Shown piece after piece: positions 4,770 through 44,476 of a stretch of 44,476 nucleotides of DNA. The notes under the pieces are model-generated. The model saw nothing but the letters and a program-made list of their open reading frames with translations, was not told the DNA's origin and searched no databases. The first letter of the stretch is position 1. The number at the start of each line of letters is the position of its first letter. Source of the stretch: a virus; IMG/VR virus record IMGVR_UViG_3300025876_000039, one strand, 5' to 3'. The position numbers and the translations under genes are program-made.

Positions 4770-5015
4770 ATGAAAATTAGAATGGAAAAAAAAGCTATTG
4801 GCGTTAATATGACTATTGATAGCTTTGATTATCTAGTGGATAAATTGCAAAAAACTTTATATTTACCAAAAAGTTTTAAGGCTGCTACAAAAGAAGAAAT
4901 GGTTAAATTAATTACAGAATTTGAAGATTTTGCAATAAGGCAAGGTTGGCACGAGATAAGGCTTGAATCAAAAGAAAAAGAAGAGATGGTTAAATATTAT
5001 AGTAATATCGGTTGA
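4770..5015 (+). CDS. Hypothetical protein with a NinB-C-terminal-like motif
   Basis: 81-aa ORF. PKSFKAATKEEMVKLITEFEDFAIRQGW parallels AKSFSGISKKEMSLVLDRISKWAFNRGF of the preceding gene. Confidence 0.6.
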   Translation: MKIRMEKKAIGVNMTIDSFDYLVDKLQKTLYLPKSFKAATKEEMVKLITEFEDFAIRQGWHEIRLESKEKEEMVKYYSNIG

Positions 5016-5040
5016 CTTTAAAAATAAAATAGTAGATACT
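5012..5040 (+). promoter_or_regulatory. sigma70-like promoter TTGACT-N17-GATACT
   Basis: TTGACT at 5012..5017 overlaps the stop TGA at 5013..5015. GATACT at 5035..5040. Precedes the SSB leader. Confidence 0.4.
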
Positions 5041-5058
5041 AATTATAGTTTAATTTTT

Positions 5059-5106
5059 AGGGCAGGTTCGGTTTTAGTTCATATTTTTACCTTTGTTGCC
5101 TGCCCT
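5059..5106 (+). promoter_or_regulatory. GC-rich 8-bp stem hairpin in the SSB 5' leader
   Basis: AGGGCAGG (5059..5066) pairs with CCTGCCCT (5099..5106) around a 32-nt loop. The loop begins TTCGGTT, which is T-loop-like. Confidence 0.45.
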
Positions 5107-5141
5107 GATGATTAAATTATTAACAAAACAATAAAACAAAT

Positions 5142-5537
5142 ATGCAAAAGCTAAAGCTTCAAAACATTTGGGATGACCAAACTAAATCTTTTTTAAAAGA
5201 TCAATTTCACTTAAGGGAAAGCGATAAGGTTATTAGTGGGAGAGTCGCTTTATCTAGTAAAAAAGAAGACAAGTGGGTATCAAAAGATATGCCATTTGTT
5301 GCTTTTAAATCACAAATAACAGACTCAACAAGAATTGCATTAACTCAAAGCAATGGCAAGTTATTTGATGCTGAATTTACTATTATGGTAGATGAATTTA
5401 CAGATAAAGAGGGTCAAGTTAGAAAATATTTTAAGGTTAATATACTTAATGCCTCTTTGTTAGATGCTCCTACTCAAAGCAATAGCCAGCCAGCAGTTAG
5501 CGAAGAAATCGTTGATGATGAAATTATACCTTTTTAA
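5142..5537 (+). CDS. ssb: Single-stranded DNA-binding protein
   Basis: 131 aa with the acidic C-terminal tail EEIVDDEIIPF, the D-D-D-I-P-F type partner-recruiting tip of bacterial and phage SSBs. Confidence 0.7.
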   Translation: MQKLKLQNIWDDQTKSFLKDQFHLRESDKVISGRVALSSKKEDKWVSKDMPFVAFKSQITDSTRIALTQSNGKLFDAEFTIMVDEFTDKEGQVRKYFKVNILNASLLDAPTQSNSQPAVSEEIVDDEIIPF

Positions 5538-28273: not shown

Positions 28274-29230
28274 TTAATCGTCAAAAATTGGAATGGCTAC
28301 ACAACGACAACCGTAATCTTCTTGCGGATTGTTGCGTGCGCCTGTTTCTTTATTAGTTATAGGAGGATTAGCAAAGCTGAATATCTTGCCGTTGAGTTGC
28401 TTATGATCTTCTCTTGTTCTTGAGTCCCGAGATGTTGACCATTTATATTGAGTAATACCAAGTTCTAAATATTTAGATTCTTTGTATTTTGCAGTAAATA
28501 AACCGATTTCTTGTTTTGCTAAGAAACTAGCTTTATTTTTACTGATCCCAAATTCTTTTAATATATCATCTTTTAATGATTCTGCTCTTATGCCTGCAAA
28601 AACATTTTTTTCAATCTGACCCCTAAGCTTTAAAACTTCCTTTTCTGCAAAGTCTTTTATATATAACTCTAAGTTATTTGTAAACTCTTGAGCTATCTTA
28701 AGCTTCTGATCTTCTGTTGTGATTATATTTAATCCAACAACATTAGAAGCCGATTTTACTAAATCTTTATCTAGTCTATTTAAAATATCAACATATTTTT
28801 TATTTAATTGAAAATCTTTTATTGATGCGTCAATATTGATATTATCTAATTTAGTAACCAAGCTTTCAGCTAATTGTTGACCTGCTAGGACTGCCCTACC
28901 TACTGTTAGCTGTATTGTTGGTGGCAATTCATTTATATTTGCCTTTATCCTTCTAGTTCTTGTGTCAAAATTAAAACCTAGATTTTTAAAAGCTTTGATC
29001 AGTGATATGTTAAAATTACCTGCAAAATAATTATCTTTGTATCCTATCTTGCCAGTTCTAATGGCTGTAATTATCAAATCATCGCTTGAATTGTAATATA
29101 GCTTTTGTTTTTCTTCTAACTCATCAAGTAAGGGCTGAAATAGGCTTTTTTTAAAGAAAGCTAGTATCTCTTTAGCTATCCTTTCTTCTTCTATTGCTGG
29201 AGTTATAACTGGCTTTAATGTTTTAACCAT
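28274..29230 (-). CDS. Mu F-like / SPP1 gp7-like minor head protein
   Basis: C-terminal WSTSRDSRTREDHKQLNGKIFSF...GCRC is the Phage_Mu_F signature. Confidence 0.75.
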   Translation of the reverse strand: MVKTLKPVITPAIEEERIAKEILAFFKKSLFQPLLDELEEKQKLYYNSSDDLIITAIRTGKIGYKDNYFAGNFNISLIKAFKNLGFNFDTRTRRIKANINELPPTIQLTVGRAVLAGQQLAESLVTKLDNINIDASIKDFQLNKKYVDILNRLDKDLVKSASNVVGLNIITTEDQKLKIAQEFTNNLELYIKDFAEKEVLKLRGQIEKNVFAGIRAESLKDDILKEFGISKNKASFLAKQEIGLFTAKYKESKYLELGITQYKWSTSRDSRTREDHKQLNGKIFSFANPPITNKETGARNNPQEDYGCRCVAIPIFDD

Positions 29231-30503
29231 TAATTTGAGTCATTAAAATATTACGCTTGTTTATTTCTTGCGTGGCTTCTTCTATTGTGATTACGCCCCT
29301 ATCTACCATTGACAAGATATTATTTATCACAACATTATTCATATTGGCTTCTTGCTCTGAATTAAGCTCTCTTAATGGATTATAGCCAATCTTTATATCA
29401 TAAACCTCAGTATCAAATAACTTCTTGGCGTATAACTTAACTATCTTAGCTATAGTGTTATCGTTCTTGCCTCTTATTTCTGCTTCAATCATAGAGTTGT
29501 AATTTTCTATTGAATCTTCACCCGATGCAAAGCCACTTGCGGATTGCCCAAAGAGTTTATTTATTGGCATTTTAACATCACTAGCAATAGCTATTCTTAT
29601 TTCTCTTAATACTTCCGCTAATCCTGTAAATGTTTGTGTTTTTTGCTCGTAATCATCATCTTTATCTTTGATAATAGCGTTTTGATATGATTTAACTTGA
29701 TTCATCATTTGAATTGACTTCAATACCTTTTGAGTACCTTCAGGCGTTCCTATTGTTTGGTGGAAGTTTTTTAAACCGTAAACATCAACCTTTGCCTCAT
29801 CTAGCAAATCAAATATAACATTGTTATTTTTAAGAAATTGATTAAAGCTAATAATAACCCTTTCAACCTCACTCATACCCCAACCCCTCAATTGTGGTCT
29901 TAGTAGTGATGGAGCTGTCTTGCCCTTTATAGCAATAACTCTTGAAGGATCTAGTTTATTACCATAATAATAGAAATCATGCTGCCCACTTCCTGCAATG
30001 TATGGCTTTTCTTCAGTATAGCTACCAGTGCTTGATCTGTTTAGCTCCCATAAATCAGCGGCGTAAATCTCTAGTGGAGTATTTTTATTTATTTGAGTTA
30101 TTCTTAGCGGGCTATCAGACTTACCAACTGTATTAATGATTATACCACTACCACCGAATAACCTTTCCCACCTCATGGCGTCTTTTATGGTATTTAAAAC
30201 CCCTTCATCTTGTAAGAATTTTTGCAAGTCAGATATATCATCATCATCTAACATTTCAGATTTAATCTGTATCCCACCTTTGAAGCAATCTTCAATAGGC
30301 TGGTCAATCAAAGTTTGAATAATACCATAAGTAGAATAAGCATAAGATAGGGTTGGTCGGTCATTACTTACTAGATAAGTACGATTATTGAGCCTTAGCG
30401 TTTCTGTGCTTGATACCTGTTTATCAGTAGCTAAACCGAAAGCTAAGTCGGTTAATCCGTTAAGGGTATAGGAAGCGTGATAATTATCTTTTTTCTTAGC
30501 CAT
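29223..30503 (-). CDS. Portal protein (DUF1073-type)
   Basis: ~426 aa, between TerL and the MuF-like gene. I take the ATG at 30503 as the start; the ORF track extends to a TTG at 30506. Confidence 0.75.
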   Translation of the reverse strand: MAKKKDNYHASYTLNGLTDLAFGLATDKQVSSTETLRLNNRTYLVSNDRPTLSYAYSTYGIIQTLIDQPIEDCFKGGIQIKSEMLDDDDISDLQKFLQDEGVLNTIKDAMRWERLFGGSGIIINTVGKSDSPLRITQINKNTPLEIYAADLWELNRSSTGSYTEEKPYIAGSGQHDFYYYGNKLDPSRVIAIKGKTAPSLLRPQLRGWGMSEVERVIISFNQFLKNNNVIFDLLDEAKVDVYGLKNFHQTIGTPEGTQKVLKSIQMMNQVKSYQNAIIKDKDDDYEQKTQTFTGLAEVLREIRIAIASDVKMPINKLFGQSASGFASGEDSIENYNSMIEAEIRGKNDNTIAKIVKLYAKKLFDTEVYDIKIGYNPLRELNSEQEANMNNVVINNILSMVDRGVITIEEATQEINKRNILMTQING

Positions 30504-30504
30504 C

Positions 30505-30540
30505 AATAGAGTTTTAAGCGTCCCTGCTGGCTACTCTATT
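30505..30540 (-). promoter_or_regulatory. 8-bp stem hairpin abutting the portal start codon
   Basis: AATAGAGT (30505..30512) pairs with ACTCTATT (30533..30540) around a GC-rich 20-nt loop. On the minus-strand mRNA the 3' arm ends 1 nt before the AUG. Confidence 0.4.
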
Positions 30541-30578
30541 ATTGGATAAAAAAAAATCAATAGAAAATAAAAAAGTTC

Positions 30579-30607
30579 TTGAGTATTAAAAAATGATTAA
30601 TTATATA
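30579..30607 (+). promoter_or_regulatory. Candidate sigma70-like promoter TTGAGT-N17-TATATA
   Basis: TTGAGT at 30579..30584 and TATATA at 30602..30607. Oriented against the late operon. Confidence 0.35.
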
Positions 30608-30614
30608 AATTAAT

Positions 30615-30702
30615 AGCTGGCTTGATCACCAGTCCTTTCTTGTTCCACTAGAACAATACAATATGCTATTTTATAAGGCGGTAGCAATACCGCTTTATTT
30701 TT
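30615..30702 (+). ncRNA. Candidate ~85-nt small RNA (three hairpins, the last an intrinsic terminator)
   Basis: Stems CTGG/CCAG (30617..30632), TTGTTC/GAACAA (30640..30656) and GCGGTA-GCAA-TACCGC (30678..30693), followed by TTTATTTTT. The T-run is present only in the + orientation. Confidence 0.3.
30678..30702 (+). terminator. Rho-independent terminator (+ orientation)
   Basis: GCGGTA-gcaa-TACCGC stem-loop followed by TTTATTTTT. Confidence 0.55.
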
Positions 30703-31086
30703 AAAGTATAAGTTTAAATGAATAAGAAGGAAAAAATAGCGCATTGTAAAATAACCAGCAAATTAAAAGAAGTGGTTGTCGGATTCTAGTGACTTAACAG
30801 TGATAAACTTATCCAAATTTTACAATTAAGCTCCTTAACTGATCGCTAAGTTCTGTTTGCAAAGTGAAATAAAACCTTCCTAGTGGTCGTATGCTTGGCT
30901 TTGGGAGGATAAAGTGGAGGTAATGCTCCGACAGTGATTGCTTTATAGCAAGGATTCAGAAGTAATATTATATTAGGGAGAAAATCACCTGCCCGTTTTA
31001 CATCATTTGTGAAAATCTTGTAAAATCTTCTAAGCATATTTTGTTAAAGGACTTTGCGATAACTCAAAAGCATGACTTTTCAAAAT

Positions 31087-31112
31087 AACCCTTTTTAATC
31101 GAAGGGTTTTTT
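31087..31112 (+). terminator. Rho-independent terminator (mainly + orientation, possibly bidirectional)
   Basis: AACCCTT-tttaatcg-AAGGGTT followed by TTTT(G). On the minus strand the stem is followed by ATTTTG. Confidence 0.55.
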
Positions 31113-31176
31113 GCGTCTAAACAATGCTCAAATCTAAAAGCATAACATTAAGTTAATAGTAAATACATTATAGCAC

Positions 31177-31205
31177 TTGACATATTAAGAAAAATATGAT
31201 ATACT
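31177..31205 (+). promoter_or_regulatory. sigma70-like promoter TTGACA-N17-TATACT
   Basis: TTGACA at 31177..31182 and TATACT at 31200..31205, 30 nt upstream of the ATG at 31235. Confidence 0.45.
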
Positions 31206-31234
31206 TGATTTATTACTAATAAAATTAAAAAAAT

Positions 31235-31399
31235 ATGAAAATCCAACACACAATAAAAGAATTAGCAATCATTGAATTATTTAAAGGTCAAGAATTAACT
31301 GGTCAAGCTGCTGAGACTTACAGTCGTTTGATTAACTTGATTAATAGCAATGCTCTTGAGAGATCAAAAAGGCAAGCTGGTTATTATTGGAGTAAATAG
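31235..31399 (+). CDS. 54-aa ORF convergent with terminase (not in the ORF track; tentative)
   Basis: MKIQHTIKELAIIELFKGQELTGQAAETYSRLINLINSNALERSKRQAGYYWSK. Has its own consensus promoter. Its stop lies 1 nt from the TerL stop. Confidence 0.4.
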   Translation: MKIQHTIKELAIIELFKGQELTGQAAETYSRLINLINSNALERSKRQAGYYWSK

Positions 31400-31400
31400 G

Positions 31401-32699
31401 CTACAAGACATCCCAGATAGATATATTTTGCTTGATATAATCCACTAAAGCATATCTAATAGCATCTATCCCATGATCCCAGCCAGCAGTATCATTAACA
31501 ACTGGCAATACTTCTTTAGTGTTTTTGTCGATCTTATAAGAATAGTTTTGAAACTCTTCTAAAACCTTCTTGCAGTCTTCGTGAATTATAACTTTATTAA
31601 ATCCTTTAATATATTCTATACCATCAATTATTAAGCTGCTTTTAGTCTCACCCTCACTCCTATCACTAGACTTTGAAGCCCCTTCTATGTTAAAACCCCT
31701 TCTAGCTAGATAAGATATAGTTTCAGGTCTTGAATTATCCGCTTTTATTTGCCACCTTCTGCTATCAGGTATTTGATCAAATAAGGCTGGTAAGTCATCT
31801 ATTTGTGTTTGATATCCGTAAATCTCTTTATCAATATATAAATTATTATCCATTATAAATAATCTAATTAACACTGTAGGATCATTAGCAAAGCCCCAGT
31901 CTGCACCATAAAACAATCTATTCATATATAGATCGTTTATTGGTGGCGTTTCAAACTTAGCAACCTCATATTTGCCACTAAATATAATCTCTTCAGGATT
32001 CCCGATTGGTATTCCTCCGTATTCGTGCTGGTAAGCTTCAAAGTTATTTATCTTTAGCTTTTCTGCGTCTGCAAAAAACTTCTCACCGAGCCAATGTCTA
32101 GGGACTTCTTGATAATTAGAATGATGAATTAATCTATCATCATTTATTTCATCTTGGACTTTATTTACCCAGTGATTAGGGTTTCTTGGTGGGTTGTAGG
32201 TAAAGAACTCAACAAACTTATCACCACCCCTTAAAACTGATTGCTTGACACTTCTTATTTCTTCTAAGCCGCTGTATTCCTCGCCTTCTTCGAACCATAA
32301 ATATTTAAAATAACCTTTTCTTAATTTGATTGATTTTAACTTGCTAGGCTCATCTAAACCCCGCATAATTATTTTTTGTCCAGTTGGCAAATAAGTTATT
32401 TCAGAAGGGGATTTAATATGATCAAAGTATTTATCCACCCCTAGCATATCAATAGCGAATAATAGCGTTTCTAAAACCGAAGTCCTTATTGTATTAGCTG
32501 TTTTTCTGATAGCGATTGCATTGGCTGTAGGGTCGTTTATTATACCCAAGATTATTTGCTCTGCAACAAAGGTTGATTTAGTGCTACCCCTGCCGCCTCG
32601 TAGCCAAAACTCGTTGTAAGTCTCGTCTCTAATATCTCTATGGACTTGATGAAACGATGGAGCTATTATTTGAGATAATTTAATATCATTAGAGATCAT
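31401..32699 (-). CDS. terL: Terminase large subunit (PBSX/Terminase_3-like)
   Basis: Walker A LRGGRGSTKST, Walker B-like YLWFEEGEE, and a C-terminal nuclease region with AGWDHGIDAIRYAL. Confidence 0.9.
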   Translation of the reverse strand: MISNDIKLSQIIAPSFHQVHRDIRDETYNEFWLRGGRGSTKSTFVAEQIILGIINDPTANAIAIRKTANTIRTSVLETLLFAIDMLGVDKYFDHIKSPSEITYLPTGQKIIMRGLDEPSKLKSIKLRKGYFKYLWFEEGEEYSGLEEIRSVKQSVLRGGDKFVEFFTYNPPRNPNHWVNKVQDEINDDRLIHHSNYQEVPRHWLGEKFFADAEKLKINNFEAYQHEYGGIPIGNPEEIIFSGKYEVAKFETPPINDLYMNRLFYGADWGFANDPTVLIRLFIMDNNLYIDKEIYGYQTQIDDLPALFDQIPDSRRWQIKADNSRPETISYLARRGFNIEGASKSSDRSEGETKSSLIIDGIEYIKGFNKVIIHEDCKKVLEEFQNYSYKIDKNTKEVLPVVNDTAGWDHGIDAIRYALVDYIKQNISIWDVL

Positions 32700-33072
32700 C
32701 TTTTATAACTCTTGGCAATAGGTCGCCACCATCTTTGGCTGTCAATTCATTTCTTAAACTAAACTCTTCTTTGCATTTCCTTTCTAGCCACCATTTGGAG
32801 CTTATATCATCGCCTTCTTTTATCTTGTTTACAATATTCATTTTAGCCTTTATATCTACGCTTTTTCTTACTGCGTTCATTTCGTCAACAAAACTGGGGT
32901 GCCTTTCACTATGATTATAATAAGTCTGCTTTGAAATCTTTGTGAAAATACAAGCTTGATCGATAGTAAGTCCATTTGAAAAAGCTGTTTTAAATTCTTT
33001 GACTTTATCAGGCGTTATTGCCTCAGGTCTTCCAGCGTCTTTATGCAAATGTTTAGGCTTCTTTTTAGTCAT
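32689..33072 (-). CDS. terS: Terminase small subunit (HTH type)
   Basis: AGRPEAITPDKVKEFKTAFSNGLTIDQACIFTKISKQTYYNH...SKWWLERK. Directly upstream of and overlapping TerL. Confidence 0.7.
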   Translation of the reverse strand: MTKKKPKHLHKDAGRPEAITPDKVKEFKTAFSNGLTIDQACIFTKISKQTYYNHSERHPSFVDEMNAVRKSVDIKAKMNIVNKIKEGDDISSKWWLERKCKEEFSLRNELTAKDGGDLLPRVIKDDL

Positions 33073-33073
33073 A

Positions 33074-33844
33074 TTATTTGTTAATAAAAGCTTTTAATGG
33101 ATAAAACACTAGTGAATTGCGATAACCTCCTTTAGCATAATTTTTTATAGGAGTTACGGCGTGCATATTTCTCCAAGCTGGGTAGACAAGCATTGAATTA
33201 TCTGATTGGTCAAATACTGCGTCATAATCAGGAACGACCAAATTGTTCCCCTCACTACCTTTTCTTTTTGTGATAATAACATTCAAAGAATTAGGTATAT
33301 TTCCATTGTCAACGTGAAAATCTGCGTTAATATTAAAATTAGATATAGAGCTGGTAAATATATTGCCAATTTTCCACTTTGGATCCACCTCATTATCAAA
33401 TAAATTTTTTATATAACCATATTGTTTTGGCATATATTCTTGTATTATTTTTTCGCTTTCCTTAGCTAATAATAACATACCTTTTATAAAATTTTGTGCC
33501 GTCTTCACTTGGTGAACAGAAGATAAAGATGGATAAGGTCTTCTCATGTGAGGTTTAGGAGGTATAGAGCCTATAATTGTCGAGTATTGCAATACTTCAT
33601 TACTTGGGTCAGTAAAGCCGCTCGACCTTTTCATTACAGATTTAGGAACTCTTTTACTCCTTAACTCTGTATCACATAAATTCGCTAACTTAGATATTTT
33701 ATTGGGCAAGTTTTTAAGGAAAAATCCAACAACTTCTCCATTTTCAATTAATAAACAAGAATCTAAGATATTGGGATTTAATTCTGGACTTTTACCTCCA
33801 GTTTTAAAGCCGTGAGGATGCTTTTTAAGTAAAATCTTATCCAT
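33074..33844 (-). CDS. TET/JBP-family 2OG-Fe(II) dioxygenase (nucleic-acid base oxygenase)
   Basis: FHVDNGNIPNSLNVIIT (HxD: H177/D179), NMHAVTPIKN (H228) and RNSLVFY (R242) parallel the TET blocks HRDxHN..GST.V, LHATTP and R.SLVFYQH. Confidence 0.75.
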   Translation of the reverse strand: MDKILLKKHPHGFKTGGKSPELNPNILDSCLLIENGEVVGFFLKNLPNKISKLANLCDTELRSKRVPKSVMKRSSGFTDPSNEVLQYSTIIGSIPPKPHMRRPYPSLSSVHQVKTAQNFIKGMLLLAKESEKIIQEYMPKQYGYIKNLFDNEVDPKWKIGNIFTSSISNFNINADFHVDNGNIPNSLNVIITKRKGSEGNNLVVPDYDAVFDQSDNSMLVYPAWRNMHAVTPIKNYAKGGYRNSLVFYPLKAFINK

Positions 33845-34509
33845 TATAAATTGCCTTTTTCTTGTTTTAATTTATCTAATAAAAATTTTCCTATATACAT
33901 CTCTTTACTTCTCCAAAATTTAACTAACTCTGAAGCTTCTTCGTAATGATCGGAGTTAAATTCTATCTGAATTGCCTTTTTAACATCACTAGACATATCA
34001 TTTAATCTTTCGTTATCTTCTTCATCTAAAAGTGAATAATCTATATTATTTTCACCAATTTCTATATGCAAATCTTGAATTTCAACATCTATGTCGTCTA
34101 AATTAGTATTTAACCCTTCTAGCCAATTTTTTAAATTATCTTCATTGATTGGATTAGTTTTTTGATTAAAAACTTGTAATAAATATTTTATAGCTGTTTT
34201 TTTGTTTGGCAAATCTAAGAAGGTGCAGTTTAACTTACTTGGTATATTGTAGCCTTCTGATTCTAGTTCTATTAAAATATCTTTGCGGCAATGCCCGTCT
34301 ATAATATAAATCTTATCTTCATCTTGCCACACATAAATTGAGCTTGCGAAGCCGTTACTAATAATACTTTGCTTAACTTTCTCACTATGGTAATTATTTT
34401 TAAGATTAACTGGCTGTAAATCTTGCAAATCTTGCCAAGTAACTCTTTCAGTTTTTAAAATTAAGTCTTTTATTTGCATTTTGAATATTTGTTGCTGTTT
34501 ATTTAACAA
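33844..34509 (-). CDS. ParB N-terminal (ParB-like nuclease) domain protein
   Basis: ...IYVWQDEDKIYIIDGHCRKDIL is a DGHHR-type ParB/Srx motif. Acidic C-terminal half. Confidence 0.7.
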   Translation of the reverse strand: MLNKQQQIFKMQIKDLILKTERVTWQDLQDLQPVNLKNNYHSEKVKQSIISNGFASSIYVWQDEDKIYIIDGHCRKDILIELESEGYNIPSKLNCTFLDLPNKKTAIKYLLQVFNQKTNPINEDNLKNWLEGLNTNLDDIDVEIQDLHIEIGENNIDYSLLDEEDNERLNDMSSDVKKAIQIEFNSDHYEEASELVKFWRSKEMYIGKFLLDKLKQEKGNL

Positions 34510-34543
34510 TAATTTGACTTTTTAAAATAGCAATATATTAAAA

Positions 34544-34613
34544 GCAACGGGGATAGTTTTGAATATCCGCCGTTGCGCCCTCGTGAGTATGTCCCTATTC
34601 ACGAGGGTTTTTT
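34544..34613. terminator. Double hairpin between the MTase and ParB-like genes (bidirectional terminator, or a small + strand RNA)
   Basis: GCAACGG/CCGTTGC (34544..34576) and CCCTCGTGA/TCACGAGGG (34578..34607) followed by TTTTTT on +. On the minus strand the 7-bp hairpin is followed by TTTT. Confidence 0.5.
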
Positions 34614-36192
34614 AATTTAACAAAAACCTTTCATCAATCTTTATTCTTGTTTGAGAATATTTTAAATATTCCTCTTCAGTAGCTCCCATCTCGTAAGCTT
34701 CGGATTTATCTTTTATCCAGCCCAATAGATTAGACACTTTAACATTGAAATGCTTAATAAACTCTTGATTGAATTTTATATGAATAGTCCCTTTTTTAAA
34801 TATTTTTATTGTTGCAAATAGCTTTATTTTCTCTTCTTGACTATCAGAACAATGTATTTCTCTAGCTTTGCCATATTCCCAAGATTTATGAGGCAAATCA
34901 ACAACATAACCAAGCGTTCTTGCTACTGTGCAGACATCGCTTAAAATGTTTTGTGTTTCATTTCCAGACATACTATAAGAATATCTAAACTCGCCGTCTT
35001 GCAAATGATTCTCGCCCCAAGATTCAAAAATAATTCGATTGTCAAGTATTACCATATCTATTTTTCTTTTGTTATTATATCTAAAATCATCATTAACCCA
35101 AGTTTTTTTATTTGATTTATAATTGATTATATTTTTTTCATCTGTGAATTGATAAAATAAATCTATTAGCTGCTCATCAATATATTTATTAGCATTTTTA
35201 ATAGCCCAAATGACAACCGCATAAATATTTGATTCGTTAAAATCTACTTTATTACTCAATTTTTTCCTAAACTCATCTCGATATTTTATACTTAATCGCT
35301 CATTGATCGGTCTAAATTTTGTAAATAATTCCTGCCAATATATTATTTTCAAATTCTCAATCCTCTTTTGCAAAGCCTCTTTTAAATTTTGTATTGATAC
35401 CCCTAGTTCATTTAATAACCCAGCATCTAATTTTGAGATATTACGATAATTTTCAAAAATACTATTAAGCTCAACATCATATAGATTGCATAGAGTTTTT
35501 ACCAAGCTGTCGCCTTGCACTACATCGCCTAAGCCCTTTTTTATTTTACCTTCTATCTCTTCCCGAATTTCTTTTTTTTCATCTTTTATATTAAAAGTTT
35601 TTTCAAAAAATAGACTAAATGCGTCTTTTTGTTTTGCTCCATAATATAAAGGCTTGCTAAAAATTACAAGATCAACATAAGCCCTTGCTTTCCTTTCAGC
35701 GTCCAAGAAATCATAATTTCCAATAATACGACTATCCCAGCCTCTTTTTTTAATTATATCTTGTATATGCTCATCACTTGACCATCTAGAAGGGATAACC
35801 ATGATTACATTCCTGCTGGTGGACTCTTCTAATATCTTTTTAGTCCATTCCTTAAATTGGCTGTATGGTGGGTTACAAAAAATATTGCCAACTTCTTTAT
35901 CAATTAGTGTTTGTTGGTAAAAATCCGTGCCAATAATTATAATCGATGGATCACAATTTTTTATTAAGATTTCTGATTTTTCAATGCCGAATTTTTGATC
36001 AAAACTATCTAATTTTTGCAAAGTCTGACCATTGCCGCAGCCAATATCTAAAATTGACCCCCCTAATTTAAGACTATTAATTTTATTTATAATTTCATCG
36101 GTTGTCGGATAGAATTCCCAGTCTTGATTGTTTTCTTTGAGATTGCTCAATAAGTCTTTCATATTTTTATTGTTTTTGTTGTTAAAAATCAC
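34612..36192 (-). CDS. SAM-dependent DNA amino-methyltransferase (NPPY type, N6-A or N4-C) with a long C-terminal domain
   Basis: FYPT, motif I ILDIGCGNG and motif IV FCNPPY (aa 105-110) in gamma-class order. About 400 further residues are of unknown function. Confidence 0.75.
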   Translation of the reverse strand: MIFNNKNNKNMKDLLSNLKENNQDWEFYPTTDEIINKINSLKLGGSILDIGCGNGQTLQKLDSFDQKFGIEKSEILIKNCDPSIIIIGTDFYQQTLIDKEVGNIFCNPPYSQFKEWTKKILEESTSRNVIMVIPSRWSSDEHIQDIIKKRGWDSRIIGNYDFLDAERKARAYVDLVIFSKPLYYGAKQKDAFSLFFEKTFNIKDEKKEIREEIEGKIKKGLGDVVQGDSLVKTLCNLYDVELNSIFENYRNISKLDAGLLNELGVSIQNLKEALQKRIENLKIIYWQELFTKFRPINERLSIKYRDEFRKKLSNKVDFNESNIYAVVIWAIKNANKYIDEQLIDLFYQFTDEKNIINYKSNKKTWVNDDFRYNNKRKIDMVILDNRIIFESWGENHLQDGEFRYSYSMSGNETQNILSDVCTVARTLGYVVDLPHKSWEYGKAREIHCSDSQEEKIKLFATIKIFKKGTIHIKFNQEFIKHFNVKVSNLLGWIKDKSEAYEMGATEEEYLKYSQTRIKIDERFLLN

Positions 36193-42851: not shown

Positions 42852-43028
42852 ATGAGACAATTAGAAGCTTACGCCGAAGAATATCAAGAGAGAATAGCAA
42901 TCCAAATTGAAAATGGGCTTAATGACCAAATAGCAATACCTAAAGCAAGGCGTGAAGTCTTGGAATATGCAAAAAAAGATGGTGCTGATATTGAAAAATT
43001 AATGGATATGCTAAAAGATTATAAATAA
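42852..43028 (+). CDS. 58-aa hypothetical protein (not in the ORF track)
   Basis: MRQLEAYAEEYQERIAIQIENGLNDQIAIPKARREVLEYAKKDGADIEKLMDMLKDYK. Fills the gap before the promoter at 43032. Confidence 0.5.
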   Translation: MRQLEAYAEEYQERIAIQIENGLNDQIAIPKARREVLEYAKKDGADIEKLMDMLKDYK

Positions 43029-43031
43029 TAG

Positions 43032-43060
43032 TTGACTATATAAAGTATATATTTTACAAT
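43032..43060 (+). promoter_or_regulatory. sigma70-like promoter TTGACT-N17-TACAAT (early promoter/leader cassette, first copy)
   Basis: TTGACT at 43032..43037 and TACAAT at 43055..43060. The leader ends ...AAAACAAAAAAACAAT before the ATG. Confidence 0.55.
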
Positions 43061-43093
43061 AACAAAACCTACTAAATAAAACAAAAAAACAAT

Positions 43094-44302
43094 ATGAACA
43101 AAAAACAAGTCCAGCAAAAAGTATTACAAAACGGCAAGCCTCTTGCATTAAGTAAATTTACTTGGTGCGAGAAAACTATGACATTTTCAAGTGATGAAGA
43201 TAATTTAGTTTTTGCTTTTCAAAATATTGAGGGGGTAAAGATAATATCTAGAGATTGGTCAATTCAAACAGCAGGGTATAATTCAACTCAAACAGCAGGG
43301 AATGGCTCAACTCAAAAAGCAGGGCATAATTCAACTCAAAAAGCAGGGGCTTATTCAACTCAAACAGCAGGGAATGGCTCAACTCAAAAAGCAGGGCATA
43401 ATTCAACTCAAAAAGCAGGGGCTTATTCAACTCAAACAGCAGGGGCTGGGTCAACTCAAAAAGCAGGGCATAATTCAACTCAAACAGCAGGGGCTTATTC
43501 AACTCAAACAGCAGGGGCTTATTCAACTCAAAAAGCAGGGGCTTATTCAACTCAAACAGCAGGGGCTGGGTCAACTCAAAAAGCAGGGCATAATTCAACT
43601 CAAACAGCAGGGGCTTATTCAACTCAAAAAGCAGGGGCTTATTCAACTCAAAAAGCAGGGGCTTATTCAACTCAAACAGCAGGGGCTGGGTCAACTCACT
43701 TTATTGACGATCGTTGCCAAGTTGCTACAGGTTATGAATCAATAATTCATGTCAATGGTAATGATTGCGCTATAATTAACAGAAATGTATTCGAGTTAAT
43801 ACAACCAAAATCAGGAGATATTATCCAGATAAGCCCTGATAATATTGGGGGTCATCTAGTCAATGGTATTCATAGCATAACTGGTAAAAAATCTATCATT
43901 GCTGACGGCATATTGTCGGAAGTAATATCAAAGAAAGGTAATGTTTATAAAGTGATAAATCACGGAAAAACTAAGCCAAGCTACTTGATAGAAAGTGAGG
44001 TTAATGATAAGAAGGTATATTCTCACGGCAAAACTTTAAAAGAGGCTAGAGAGTCTCTAATCTATAAACTATCAGATAGAGACAGTTCACAATATAAAGA
44101 TTTAACTTTAGATAGTGTATTGAGTAAAGAAGAGGCTATTAAGTGCTATATGACTATAACTGGAGCTTGTATTAGTGGCACTAAGTATTTTGTTGACAGG
44201 TTGAAAGATGATAGAAAAGAGTTGAGTGTTGAAGAAATTATAAATTTAACTCAAGGTCAATATGGGCATGATAAGTTTAAGGATTTCTTTAATAATACTT
44301 GA
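43094..44302 (+). CDS. Ice-nucleation-protein-like octapeptide-repeat protein (copy A of the tandem duplicate)
   Basis: Identical 402-aa product to 183..1391. The nucleotide sequence is identical wherever I compared it. Confidence 0.85.
   Translation: MNKKQVQQKVLQNGKPLALSKFTWCEKTMTFSSDEDNLVFAFQNIEGVKIISRDWSIQTAGYNSTQTAGNGSTQKAGHNSTQKAGAYSTQTAGNGSTQKAGHNSTQKAGAYSTQTAGAGSTQKAGHNSTQTAGAYSTQTAGAYSTQKAGAYSTQTAGAGSTQKAGHNSTQTAGAYSTQKAGAYSTQKAGAYSTQTAGAGSTHFIDDRCQVATGYESIIHVNGNDCAIINRNVFELIQPKSGDIIQISPDNIGGHLVNGIHSITGKKSIIADGILSEVISKKGNVYKVINHGKTKPSYLIESEVNDKKVYSHGKTLKEARESLIYKLSDRDSSQYKDLTLDSVLSKEEAIKCYMTITGACISGTKYFVDRLKDDRKELSVEEIINLTQGQYGHDKFKDFFNNT
43265..43696 (+). repeat. 18 x 24-bp in-frame tandem repeat (copy A)
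   Basis: Same array as 354..785, offset by 42,911 bp. Confidence 0.95.
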
Positions 44303-44327
44303 CTATATAAATTATATACATCATAAT
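44299..44327 (+). promoter_or_regulatory. sigma70-like promoter TTGACT-N17-CATAAT (same sequence as 122..150)
   Basis: Lies within the wrap-around overlap. Confidence 0.55.
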
Positions 44328-44359
44328 ACTAAAAATTACTAACTAAAACAAAAAACAAT

Positions 44360-44476
44360 ATGAACAAAAAACAAGTCCAGCAAAAAGTATTACAAAACGG
44401 CAAGCCTCTTGCATTAAGTAAATTTACTTGGTGCGAGAAAACTATGACATTTTCAAGTGATGAAGATAATTTAGTT
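44360..44476 (+). CDS. 5' partial of the octapeptide-repeat protein (same sequence as 183..299)
   Basis: MNKKQVQQKVLQNGKPLALSKFTWCEKTMTFSSDEDNLV... runs off the window end. Confidence 0.85.
   Translation, partial: MNKKQVQQKVLQNGKPLALSKFTWCEKTMTFSSDEDNLV

Follow-up and report, generated by a model that had tools for sequence, protein, structure and literature searches.

It is rare for a large RNA to combine many pseudoknots with invariant junctions; the examples that have been understood are ribozymes, cores of ribonucleoproteins or, in recent work, cages that assemble themselves. Several phage systems provide points of reference for an RNA encoded near packaging genes. The pRNA of phi29 (~174 nt) is an essential part of the motor, and phi29-like phages lack a small terminase. 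Staphylococcal phages produce cabRNA, a structured RNA of ~400 nt that CBASS senses and that comes from the terminase region, within the terS-terL coding sequence. Lambdoid and other tailed phages also carry morons, which are promoter-gene-terminator units inserted between late genes. A 2023 catalogue of ~10,000 viral structured RNAs describes motifs of 29-151 nt (PMC10690425), and the level of the phage RNA GOLLD increases in lytic growth (PMC12286853).

How does the present locus compare with these systems? The window, by which we mean the whole stretch of DNA analysed (44,476 nt of an uncultured marine phage, IMG/VR record IMGVR_UViG_3300025876_000039), contains a gap of 894 bp between the TerL gene (31401-32699, - strand, with its stop at 31401) and the portal gene (29223-30506, - strand, starting at 30506 with TTG or at 30503 with ATG). 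A first-pass annotation made from the letters of the sequence had described this gap as a non-coding, structured island, and ORF calls, Pfam and PHROG searches and the alignment of the family described below agree that the gap is real and holds no conserved late-strand ORF: the - strand ORFs inside it are only 63, 44 and 33 aa long, and none has a Pfam or PHROG match. Relatives show the TerL-portal junction to be a hot spot for insertions, and the gap measures just 58 nt in three of them (L033-35). The island consists of two independent + strand units, namely a structured RNA gene and a cassette comprising a promoter and a 54-aa ORF (ORF54). Outside the core of the RNA, the features of the region are as follows:

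30489..30556, - strand: 24-nt inverted repeat, 83% complementary (- strand folding, z -2.6 to -2.9)
30579..30607, + strand: sigma-70-type promoter of the RNA gene, TTGAGT-N17-TATATA (8/12, under the scan threshold)
30616-30633, + strand: hairpin hp1, GCTGG...CCAGT, found by scan
30640-30656, + strand: hairpin hp2, TTGTTC...GAACAA, together with hp1 common only to lineage B (L075)
30675..30702, + strand: 5' hairpin (8-nt loop, U-run) showing compensatory changes
31177..31205, + strand: ORF54 promoter, TTGACA-N17-TATACT, with an extended -10 (TG upstream), 11/12 in the scan
31235..31399, + strand: ORF54, a predicted 54-aa protein, with homologues and with gene calls in public assemblies

The inverted repeat flanks the island and is separate from the RNA gene; in the late mRNA, its hairpin would sequester the portal start codon.

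The promoter proposed at 30579-30607 falls below the threshold of our scan, but a TTGAC(A/T) -35 box is aligned at its position in every homologue. These upstream boxes, together with the G-U asymmetry described below, suggest that the RNA, whose environmental contigs are unstranded, is transcribed from the + strand by the host sigma-70 RNA polymerase. Transcription probably starts near 30614 and would end somewhere between 31113 and ~31150, giving a predicted total of 0.5 kb with a conserved core of ~400 nt (30743-31146). Downstream of the promoter, L075 carries equivalents of hp1 and hp2 at the same places (GCTGT...ACAG and CTTTC...GAAAG). The next hairpin, at 30675-30702, had been read as an intrinsic terminator (30678-30702) closing a small RNA of ~85 nt. 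Its stem and U-run are real, and the stem covaries among GGCGG/CCGCT (window), GAGCGG/TCGCTT (L075), GAGCGG/CCGCTC (L028), GAGGGA/TCCCTC (L069) and ACGG/CCGT (L110). However, RNA contigs (30630-30978 and 30654-30929) pass straight through it, and the hairpin is better described as a conserved 5' element of a long RNA, possibly an attenuator or a 5' protective hairpin, at which some premature termination may occur.

Pattern scans and look-ups of context, followed by blastn and nhmmer, gave homologues of the RNA (L028/L036, L069, L075, L110, L115, L060, L252/253, L254/255 and, as a partial copy, L256). They occur in at least four other lineages, in uncultured marine, freshwater and wastewater phages, and their position and orientation vary. 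Relatives retrieved through TerL from viral, genome and metagenome collections were all at most 76% identical, none of them having the island, and a set of 50,697 phage records yielded no match when queried by blastn with three family members. The pattern TCTAGTG-N-GATAAACTT returned chance matches among the matches listed; a stricter TCTAGTG pattern yielded seven extra loci, six of which proved to be conserved protein-coding sequence and the seventh (L130) unrelated to the RNA. A conserved coding frame, which the first-pass annotation had named as evidence against its reading, was also sought in the RNA core and not found: every member contains 3-17 stops per frame in all six frames. The RNAs of close relatives are 1-2-nt indels apart, and L110 differs from L115, whose - strand carries a 71-aa ORF, by a frame-shifting indel in the antisense ORF region.

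The RNA matches no described family and is unannotated by gene callers and RNA libraries. The Rfam 15 covariance models, whose scope includes GOLLD, ROOL, HEARO/omega RNA, pRNA, tmRNA, RNase P, 6S, group I/II introns and riboswitches, gave no match at gathering score over the whole window. A permissive search of 30400-31500 returned, at best, sroB at 27 bits (gathering score 44) and STnc50 at 22.8 bits (55), which are terminator-like chance matches, and ARAGORN detected no tRNA or tmRNA in the window. Of the checks proposed in the first-pass annotation, the covariance-model scan identified no Rfam 15 family, and the search for compensatory base changes in related phages was positive (30/57 pairs on an alignment made with MAFFT only). 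The fold comprises ~13 helices and three pseudoknots, with ~100 invariant nt in loops and junctions:

30743..30860, + strand: 5' domain of the core
30743-52 with 30817-26, + strand: helix P0
30753-57 with 30773-77, + strand: helix Pa, with 6 distinct complementary strand pairs and 5/5 pairs changed on both sides (MAFFT-only alignment)
30758-63 (in the Pa loop) with 30855-60, + strand: pseudoknot P1, with 5 distinct complementary strand pairs
30781-84 with 30811-14, + strand: helix P2, with the invariant internal loop TCTAGTG / GATAAACTT
30792-94 with 30799-801, + strand: helix P2a
30834-37 with 30847-50, + strand: helix P3
30861..31038, + strand: central domain, with the invariant junction AAGTGAAATAAAA
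30875-80 with 30903-08, + strand: helix P4, with the forms CCTTCC/GGGAGG, CCCTCT/AGAGGG and CCCCTTT/AAAGGGG
30890-98 with 31030-38, + strand: long-range helix P5, which crosses P4 and so forms a pseudoknot
30916-19 with 30926-29, + strand: helix P6, GGAG/CTCC
30934-39 with 30983-88, + strand: pseudoknot pk3, with the forms GTGA/TCAC, GCTAG/CTAGC and GTTG/CAAC
30938-42 with 30947-51, + strand: helix P7, TTGCT/AGCAA
30976-80 with 30989-94, + strand: helix P8
30996-31002 with 31019-25, + strand: helix P9
31039..31146, + strand: 3' domain
31061-73, + strand: box 1, AACTCAAAAGCAT
31081-93 with 31102-13, + strand: long hairpin P10, found by terminator scan
31131-46, + strand: tail with box 2, AATCTAAAAGCATAAC

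The evidence for this fold comes from its variation. On the MAFFT-only alignment, which is blind to structure, we tested 57 proposed pairs: 88.9% of the cells were paired, compared with 72.0 +/- 1.3% in shuffles (0/500 as high) and 33-49% when the partners were slid, and 30 of the 57 pairs had changed on both sides, compared with 4-7 when slid. On the same alignment, all P1 cells were paired (100%), and 6/6 of its pairs had changed on both sides. RNAalifold likewise found compensatory changes in 26 of the 48 pairs it predicted. In a hand-made alignment, which was fitted to the model, strands from the same sequence pair at 98.5% of positions and variant-swapped strands at 61%. The P5 variants TATGCTTGG/CTAAGCATA, TGCATTTGG/CTAAATGCA and TCTGTTTGG/CTAAACAGA are all 100% paired. 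G-U occupies 34 cells and A-C only 2, and one G-U pair in P5 is invariant. The family falls into approximately four deep lineages, of which the C lineage is nearly identical in the 3' two-thirds; because of the few lineages and this near identity, P6, P8, the inner part of P10 and the 3' tail rest on little variation. Within the phage population sampled in the DNA runs, which is nearly clonal with one SNP, there was no covariation. By single-sequence folding, the 5' hairpins (z -3.7 to -4.9) and 31020-31199 (z -2.2 to -3.4) are more stable than shuffles, and the central 380 nt show no excess stability (z +0.6 to -1.5). We conclude that the homologues form a family of non-coding RNAs in several uncultured aquatic phage lineages, with a structure kept by compensatory changes; judged from these alignments, the locus is a structured non-coding RNA gene whose base pairs have been retained in independent lineages.

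Several complementarities had already been listed in the first-pass annotation. CCTTCC/GGGAGG (P4), TTGCT/AGCAA (P7) and GTGATT/AATCAC (pk3) are helices in the homologues, changed on both sides. GGAG/CTCC (P6) is present in homologues, where it is invariant in three lineages, but it is doubtful in the L028/L069 lineage. The hairpin previously called the second terminator is P10: a terminator scan does find it, at 31087-31108, but its U-tract, present in the window and L075 and weakly in L110, is absent in L028/L069, which have the same hairpin, and conservation runs 33 nt beyond it. In comparison with phages that have no such RNA, the limit between presence and absence falls directly after box 2. 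P10 takes the covarying forms CAAAA.AACCCTT, GCAAAAAATCTAT, GCAGATAACCTTT and ACAGTAAT.CTCT, and is flanked by twin boxes, CUNAAAAGCAU, that are invariant in 8 members and altered together to AGTTTCAT in L256 (one partial sequence). Targets of the boxes in the phage genome were sought with AAAAGCAT and its complement, which occur 10 times (9.5 expected), none at a start codon. Three further candidates were discarded. A hammerhead-like CUGAUGA in L110 turned out to be the 3' strand of P1, which covaries; the GAAA-tetraloop receptor seen in P5 is limited to the window; and the lineages do not agree on a pairing between the 3' tail and the stretch ahead of box 1.

The RNA is expressed. In each of four estuarine metatranscriptomes, contigs span 30630-31069 at a depth of 6-26, and the RNA is the sole region outside the late structural genes to be assembled in all four. 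The major capsid gene reaches a depth of 45-100 in these runs, TerL and portal are at ~0 barring isolated short contigs, early genes hardly appear, and the depth is 0 at 30510-30610 and 31116-31417. The RNA type of the freshwater homologue L110 occurs in 11 runs labelled RNA-Seq under 8 study codes, and in four of the 11, from wastewater and freshwater and at least three studies, only the RNA (~4912-5408) is covered, the flanking ORFs being bare. Thus, across eight environmental RNA data sets the RNA is far more abundant than its flanking genes, and it is transcribed as a discrete unit, the contigs, albeit unstranded, being confined to the element with empty flanks in all 8 runs. These contigs, the homologues and the covariation together bear out the larger structured RNA that had been one of the initial alternatives.

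The second unit has a separate history. The promoter and ORF54 (31177-31399) recur at 86% nucleotide identity in a different phage context (L026/L027), where the match begins exactly at the -35 box and the promoter is kept. Compared with L027, ORF54 is of equal length, with 8 synonymous and 11 non-synonymous codon differences; its protein clusters number only 3 among 5.8 billion, and it has no Pfam or PHROG match. A terminator for ORF54 was sought and none was found, the ORF converging on the TerL stop, and the estuarine metatranscriptomes show no coverage of it. The promoter-driven ORF predicted earlier is therefore well founded, but as an independent mobile cassette rather than as part of the RNA unit.

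What might the RNA do? We consider it probable that the island comprises two accessory, self-contained + strand units lying inverted in the TerL-portal hot spot, the first producing a folded RNA that would act in trans and the second being an independent moron made of a promoter and ORF54. Action in trans is suggested because neighbours and orientation differ among phages and close relatives live without the RNA. A trans-acting, dispensable RNA would in turn be an accessory function, of the host-takeover or anti-defence type, rather than one in packaging or late-gene control. The likeliest mode would be that of a protein-binding scaffold or decoy, in which the twin single-stranded boxes around P10 would make a bivalent recognition site, because both were switched in concert in the single divergent member (L256, partial). 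Catalysis as a ribozyme would be the main alternative mode.

The RNA abuts packaging genes (TerS, TerL or portal) in seven of the nine readable contexts, and it may on this account be linked to packaging or late expression. It might even represent a new class of large RNAs in tailed phages, catalytic or machine-like in nature: either a ribozyme or an RNA subunit that works with the packaging or late-expression apparatus. We regard this as unlikely. Such a subunit would explain why the RNA recurs at the edges of the TerS/TerL/portal module, and the twin boxes of a machine-like RNA would be substrate- or partner-recognition elements. A packaging RNA of the phi29 type was rejected, as relatives with the same packaging genes (L248-251 and L033-35) do without the RNA.

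An explanation that we find similarly improbable is that of a cis-acting leader RNA, which would control a downstream operon by processive antitermination or attenuation in the manner of HK022 put or the lambda PR'-tR' region. This would fit L110, L060, L115, L252 and L254, in which the RNA lies between a sigma-70 promoter and a 69aa-TerS-TerL-portal operon in the same direction, as well as the U-run hairpin near the RNA 5' end and the terminator-like P10 of three lineages. A cis leader should always be upstream of, and co-oriented with, its operon; yet the RNA in the window is inverted, pointing away from the late genes towards another promoter and then the convergent TerL, and the gene after the RNA in L036 and L069 is on the opposite strand. 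Coverage of the RNA also ends ahead of the downstream ORF, both in the window and in L110. Finally, L248-251 do without the RNA although their 69aa-TerS-TerL operon is the same, and they retain the segment that comes after it in L110.

Could the element instead act as DNA? It might be a pac/cos terminase site, as the first-pass annotation had considered, or a transcript-primed replication origin of the ColE1 RNA II/T4 R-loop type, with the twin boxes and P10 palindrome as a protein-binding or processing site. The position beside TerS, TerL or portal, the direct repeats (D5) that flank an inverted repeat (I21), the joint change of the boxes in L256 and the end of the window's RNA contigs at 31069, inside box 1, are all consistent with this idea. 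However, the helices accept G-U, which is mismatched on the other strand, and not A-C, and the long-range and pseudoknot helices covary, which argues for selection on RNA pairing. The boxes, moreover, are invariant although the terminases of the carriers differ (Terminase_3 in the window and L252, an unassigned large terminase of ~490 aa in L028 and L254); close relatives, including L248-251 with the same packaging operon, lack the element; and one L110 RNA contig extends ~15 nt past P10. Given that the element is also transcribed, a pac region is not supported, and we judge a DNA-level function in general to be quite improbable.

We give very little credence to the original model of an ~85-nt small RNA and antisense transcripts tuning the TerL/portal ratio. 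It would fit the antisense orientation of the units relative to the late operon in the window and the U-run behind the 30675-30702 hairpin, but contigs cross that hairpin, the conserved structure continues for 450 nt more, the RNA is co-directional with the late genes in six homologues (L028, L110, L115, L060, L252 and L254), and an antisense RNA must overlap its target gene, whereas this one is wholly intergenic, overlaps no coding sequence and is mostly on the same strand as its neighbours. A nuclease-resistant fragment of - strand late mRNA, or a small-protein gene, is highly improbable too, since, despite the unstranded contigs, a - strand that also folds better than shuffled sequence (z -2.14) and - strand ORFs of 63 aa (window) and 71 aa (L115), the G-U asymmetry points to the + strand, the flanking genes of L110, whichever their strand, are uncovered, and the antisense ORFs are not conserved, with stops in all frames and no Pfam or PHROG match.

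The RNA is widespread, being found in marine, estuarine, freshwater and wastewater phages, and it offers a ~400-nt object, complete with natural variants and a model of its secondary structure, with which the use that phages make of big RNAs can be studied. It also illustrates that seemingly empty gaps in the late operons of uncultured phages can conceal RNA genes.

The trans-acting, accessory RNA that we favour can be set against the known systems as follows. Like GOLLD and ROOL, it is phage-encoded, several hundred nt long and built of many helices and multiple pseudoknots, and it is accessory, with no known protein partner; GOLLD increases in lytic growth, and the present RNA is likewise abundant in infected communities. 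It differs from both in going undetected by their Rfam models even at E <= 10, in its size (0.4-0.5 kb compared with ~0.6-0.8 kb) and in adjoining packaging genes, with no tRNA in the window, whereas GOLLD and ROOL adjoin tRNA islands. With the pRNA of phi29 it shares the character of a structured phage RNA, several members lying at the edge of a packaging module, but it has no Rfam match and its carriers have ordinary TerS/TerL. The similarity to cabRNA lies in its size and its position near terminase genes, but the present RNA has a non-coding gene and a promoter of its own, and its helices covary. As in HK022 put and the lambda PR'-tR' transcript, a sigma-70 promoter directly precedes a structured RNA, which one lineage carries in front of its late operon; the present RNA, however, is much larger, is not consistently upstream of any operon, and its coverage stops before the downstream genes. 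The comparison with morons extends to both units of the island. The product of the first is an RNA and not a protein, and the end of the RNA unit is terminator-like while no terminator was found for ORF54; nevertheless, each unit has its own promoter, lies between late genes that are adjacent in relatives (L033-35) and is present in some phages and absent in others, and ORF54 travels with its promoter.

We found that the 894 bp separating TerL from portal in the window hold a promoter-driven, non-coding and intricately folded RNA gene, together with a distinct element, a cassette carrying the 54-aa ORF54, which is the sole gene-caller annotation of this gap in the ENA assemblies. The covariance-model scan proposed in the first-pass annotation returned no match for the RNA, whose family is absent from Rfam 15. 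The features concerned are the following.

29223-30506, minus strand: portal (Phage_portal_3)
30743-31146, plus strand: core of the RNA gene
31177-31399, plus strand: ORF54 cassette (ORF54, 31235-31399)
31401-32699, minus strand: TerL (Terminase_3)
32689-33072, minus strand: small terminase (PHROG 4102)
Minus strand: Mu F-like head protein, a late gene

The unit genome of this uncultured phage is 42,911 bp, which the window exceeds by a repeated end of about 1.5 kb. Positions 1-1565 recur at 42912-44476, shifted by 42,911 bp, which makes the assembly circular or terminally redundant; the end repeat contains a 402-aa ORF (183-1391, equal to 43094-44302) with internal repeats (1-127 again at 1267; 601 again at 697). 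Among cultured phages there is no close relative, the best isolate TerL match being 39%, and near-invariant copies of the genome occur in at least 20 marine or estuarine DNA data sets (2014-2025) and in ENA assemblies. Just upstream of the small terminase lies a DNA-modification-like cluster (33074-36192, minus strand) encoding a 256-aa Tet_JBP protein (precomputed Pfam annotation; PHROG 'queuine tRNA-ribosyltransferase'), a 221-aa ParB-like/methyltransferase-like protein and a 526-aa DUF4942/methyltransferase protein.

Relaxed blastn matched 30743-31145 to positions 654-1010 of the phage contig L028 (60%, with blocks of identity), and scans with patterns taken from those blocks, together with inspection of loci carrying a 69-aa gene that neighbours the RNA, added L036, L069, L075, L110, L115, L060, L252/253 and L254/255, as well as a divergent partial copy, L256. 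The promoter that the first-pass annotation had placed at 30579-30607 scores only 8/12; what upholds it is a TTGAC(A/T) -35 box upstream of the RNA, on the same strand, in every member. In L028 the element directly follows TerL and is co-directional with the late genes, so the window carries it inverted with respect to the adjoining genes.

Gene order around the RNA in other phages
L110, L060: promoter, RNA, 69-aa gene, TerS (the L060 contig also spans TerL and portal)
L252, L254: RNA, 65-aa gene (69-aa homologue), inserted methyltransferase or HNH genes, TerS, TerL
L115: RNA, HNH, 69-aa gene, TerS
L028: TerL, RNA, small ORFs, portal
L036: TerS-like gene, RNA, opposite-strand gene
L069: early-type gene, RNA, opposite-strand gene

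Four loci (L248-251) carry the 69aa-TerS-TerL operon and the post-RNA sequence of L110 and lack the RNA, the boundary falling immediately 3' of ...AAAAGCATAAC. The RNA is a presence/absence module in diverse aquatic phages.

The TerL-portal junction is itself a hot spot. It holds only 58 nt in L033-35 (portal 69% identical), 2.9 kb of small ORFs in L028 (portal 75%), and still other genes, part of them on the opposite strand, in L001, L003 and L005; in L031 an HNH endonuclease gene is among those immediately upstream of portal, the stretch examined containing no TerL. HNH-type or NUMOD4/HNH_3 genes lie beside or near the RNA or this junction in several phages (L115 4430-4807; L254 2695-3336; L031 418-897; and, by reading of the translated sequence only, with no domain search, L036 2015-2704 and L069 3678-4034), and may be movers of these modules or merely the usual terminase-associated HNH genes. 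At the portal end of the gap, a 24-nt inverted repeat (83% complementary; 30489-30556, minus strand; folding z-scores -2.6 to -2.9) would, in the predicted late-mRNA fold, bury the portal start codon, and may control portal translation, the island having uncoupled portal from TerL. As the first-pass annotation had recognized, a TTGACA-N17-TATACT promoter precedes ORF54: it matches at 11/12 with a TG extension (31177-31205), and 31177-31398, from the -35 box to the last base of that span in ORF54, has a counterpart of 86% nucleotide identity in the IMG/VR contigs L026 and L027, in a different gene context. ORF54 and its L027 counterpart are of equal length, differ by 8 synonymous and 11 non-synonymous codon changes, and belong to a protein family of only three clusters among 5.8 billion. 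The module is a small mobile moron. A segment TTAGCACTTGG/TAGCACTTGAC, 3' of the RNA in the freshwater lineage (L110 5427-5493) and 5' of the 69-aa gene even in RNA-less phages (L248 2420-2500), resembles the -35 region of the ORF54 promoter (31165-31182) and is possibly a shared promoter module.

How is the RNA folded? A scan picked up a hairpin at 30616-30633 and a terminator-like plus-strand hairpin at 31087-31108, in agreement with the second terminator of the first-pass annotation (31087-31112). In single-sequence folding, only the 5' hairpins and the segment 31020-31199 reached significant z-scores; the 380 nt in the centre folded no better than shuffled sequences, so that, judged on the window alone, the four 'nested complementarities' described there could be chance. 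With relatives aligned by MAFFT, RNAalifold predicted 48 pairs, of which 26 show compensatory changes, and a model was then built by hand, with a hand alignment fitted to it, in which all four complementarities are helices (P4, P6, P7 and pk3). In the 5' domain, P0 closes a junction holding Pa and P2/P2a, and pseudoknot P1 joins the Pa loop to the strand 3' of hairpin P3. An invariant AAGUGAAAUAAAA follows. In the central domain, the P4 hairpin loop forms the long-range helix P5, the second pseudoknot; helix P5 encloses P6, P7, P8 and P9, and the third pseudoknot, pk3, links the P8 loop to the strand that connects P6 to P7. The 3' domain comprises box 1 (31061-31073), hairpin P10 of 12-13 bp and a tail carrying box 2 (31131-31146).

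Strand pairs across members
Pa: AACCA/TGGTT, GGTTA/TAACC, GCCCA/TGGGC, GGCTG/CAGTC, ATTCA/TGGAT, ATTCG/CGAAT
P1: GCAAAT/GTTTGC, TCATCA/TGATGA, CAATCA/TGATTG, AGCACG/CGTGCT, AGCTGG/CCAGCT
P5: TATGCTTGG/CTAAGCATA, TGCATTTGG/CTAAATGCA, TCTGTTTGG/CTAAACAGA

The 57 model pairs were counted on A1, a structure-blind MAFFT-only alignment, in a comparison of only about four deep lineages.

Pair statistics on A1: observed; shuffled (500); 3' partners slid by 1-3 columns
Cells in standard pair: 88.9%; 72.0 +/- 1.3% (0/500 reach observed); 33-49%
Pairs changed on both sides: 30; 17.7 (0/500); 4-7
Covariation score: 0.54; 0.21; 0.08-0.12

The alignment with relatives suggested in the first-pass annotation thus reveals compensatory change well beyond the slid controls, with weak support for P6, P8 and the 3' tail, and about 100 loop or junction positions are invariant in members only ~60% identical overall. 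A 16-nt inverted repeat (88% complementary; 30657-30672 with 30733-30748) surrounds the conserved 5' hairpin and runs into the 5' strand of P0; in the window's lineage only, it may give the leader a second fold. The only SNP in the island across DNA runs, 31074 G>A in run X19, immediately after box 1, restores the base of all other lineages, giving ...AAAAGCATA.

Helix cells contain 34 G-U against 2 A-C, one P5 G-U pair being invariant. Read from the opposite strand, such G-U pairs would be mispaired; these pairs and the conserved upstream promoters point to the plus strand as sense, the RNA contigs being unstranded. No conserved coding frame, which the first-pass annotation had named as grounds for refutation, was found among the homologues: in all members every frame of the RNA core is interrupted by 3-17 stop codons, and close relatives differ there by 1-2-nt indels, indicating that the core is not translated.

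In four estuarine metatranscriptomes, 63-80% of sampled words from 30640-31070 were present, with contigs of depth 6-26 (30630-30978, 30654-30929, 30756-31069, 30712-30979) and no contig coverage of 30510-30610 or 31116-31417. Because these contigs span the hairpin at 30675-30702, it does not delimit the separate ~85-nt RNA previously proposed to end at 30702. In the same runs, depth was 45-100 over the major capsid region and mostly 10-40 over other structural genes (20-23 kb); TerL and portal gave isolated short contigs, each from one run only, and over the early genes and the rest of the late genes there were only scattered contigs. This patchiness argues against contaminating DNA, for which uniform coverage is expected. 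The freshwater-type RNA of L110 occurs in 11 RNA-Seq-labelled runs (wastewater, lakes and rivers; 8 study codes) and in two of unstated library type. In four of the RNA-Seq-labelled runs coverage is confined to ~4912-5408, the RNA itself, leaving flanking ORFs uncovered, and one contig extends ~15 nt beyond P10. Such restriction indicates a discrete species that greatly exceeds neighbouring mRNAs in abundance or stability.

Covarying helices, RNA-confined coverage and homologues in diverse aquatic phages favour the larger structured RNA that the first-pass annotation had listed among its options. We infer that this RNA acts in trans and is accessory. First, its orientation and downstream genes vary between phages. 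Second, its coverage stops short of the downstream genes. Third, the RNA is missing from close relatives that share the packaging operon. Most likely, it would serve as a protein-binding scaffold or decoy, a putative ribozyme being the main alternative. The boxes CUCAAAAGCAU and UCUAAAAGCAU on either side of P10 are invariant in eight members, and in L256 both are AGUUUCAU; this concerted change suggests that the twin boxes are a putative bivalent site co-evolving with a partner. The L256 copy (1-170 of a Logan SRR31564082 contig) covers the RNA 3' half, with boxes AGTTTCAT, not AAAAGCAT, and a 6-bp complement (GCGAGC/GCTCGC), absent from other members, brackets its box 1 and P10. The varying orientation and downstream genes, the coverage limit and the RNA-less relatives speak against a leader RNA, the earlier proposal of antisense control of terminase and portal, the pac region also proposed and a pRNA-like motor part.

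The structured RNAs of viruses catalogued in 2023 are motifs of 29-151 nt only (PMC10690425). Of known kinds, the RNA comes closest to GOLLD and ROOL, large ornate RNAs of phages, which are pseudoknotted and accessory and whose function is not known (PMC12286853). The RNA in the window resembles these neither in sequence nor by their models and has different genomic neighbours, but like them it is pseudoknotted and, we infer, accessory.
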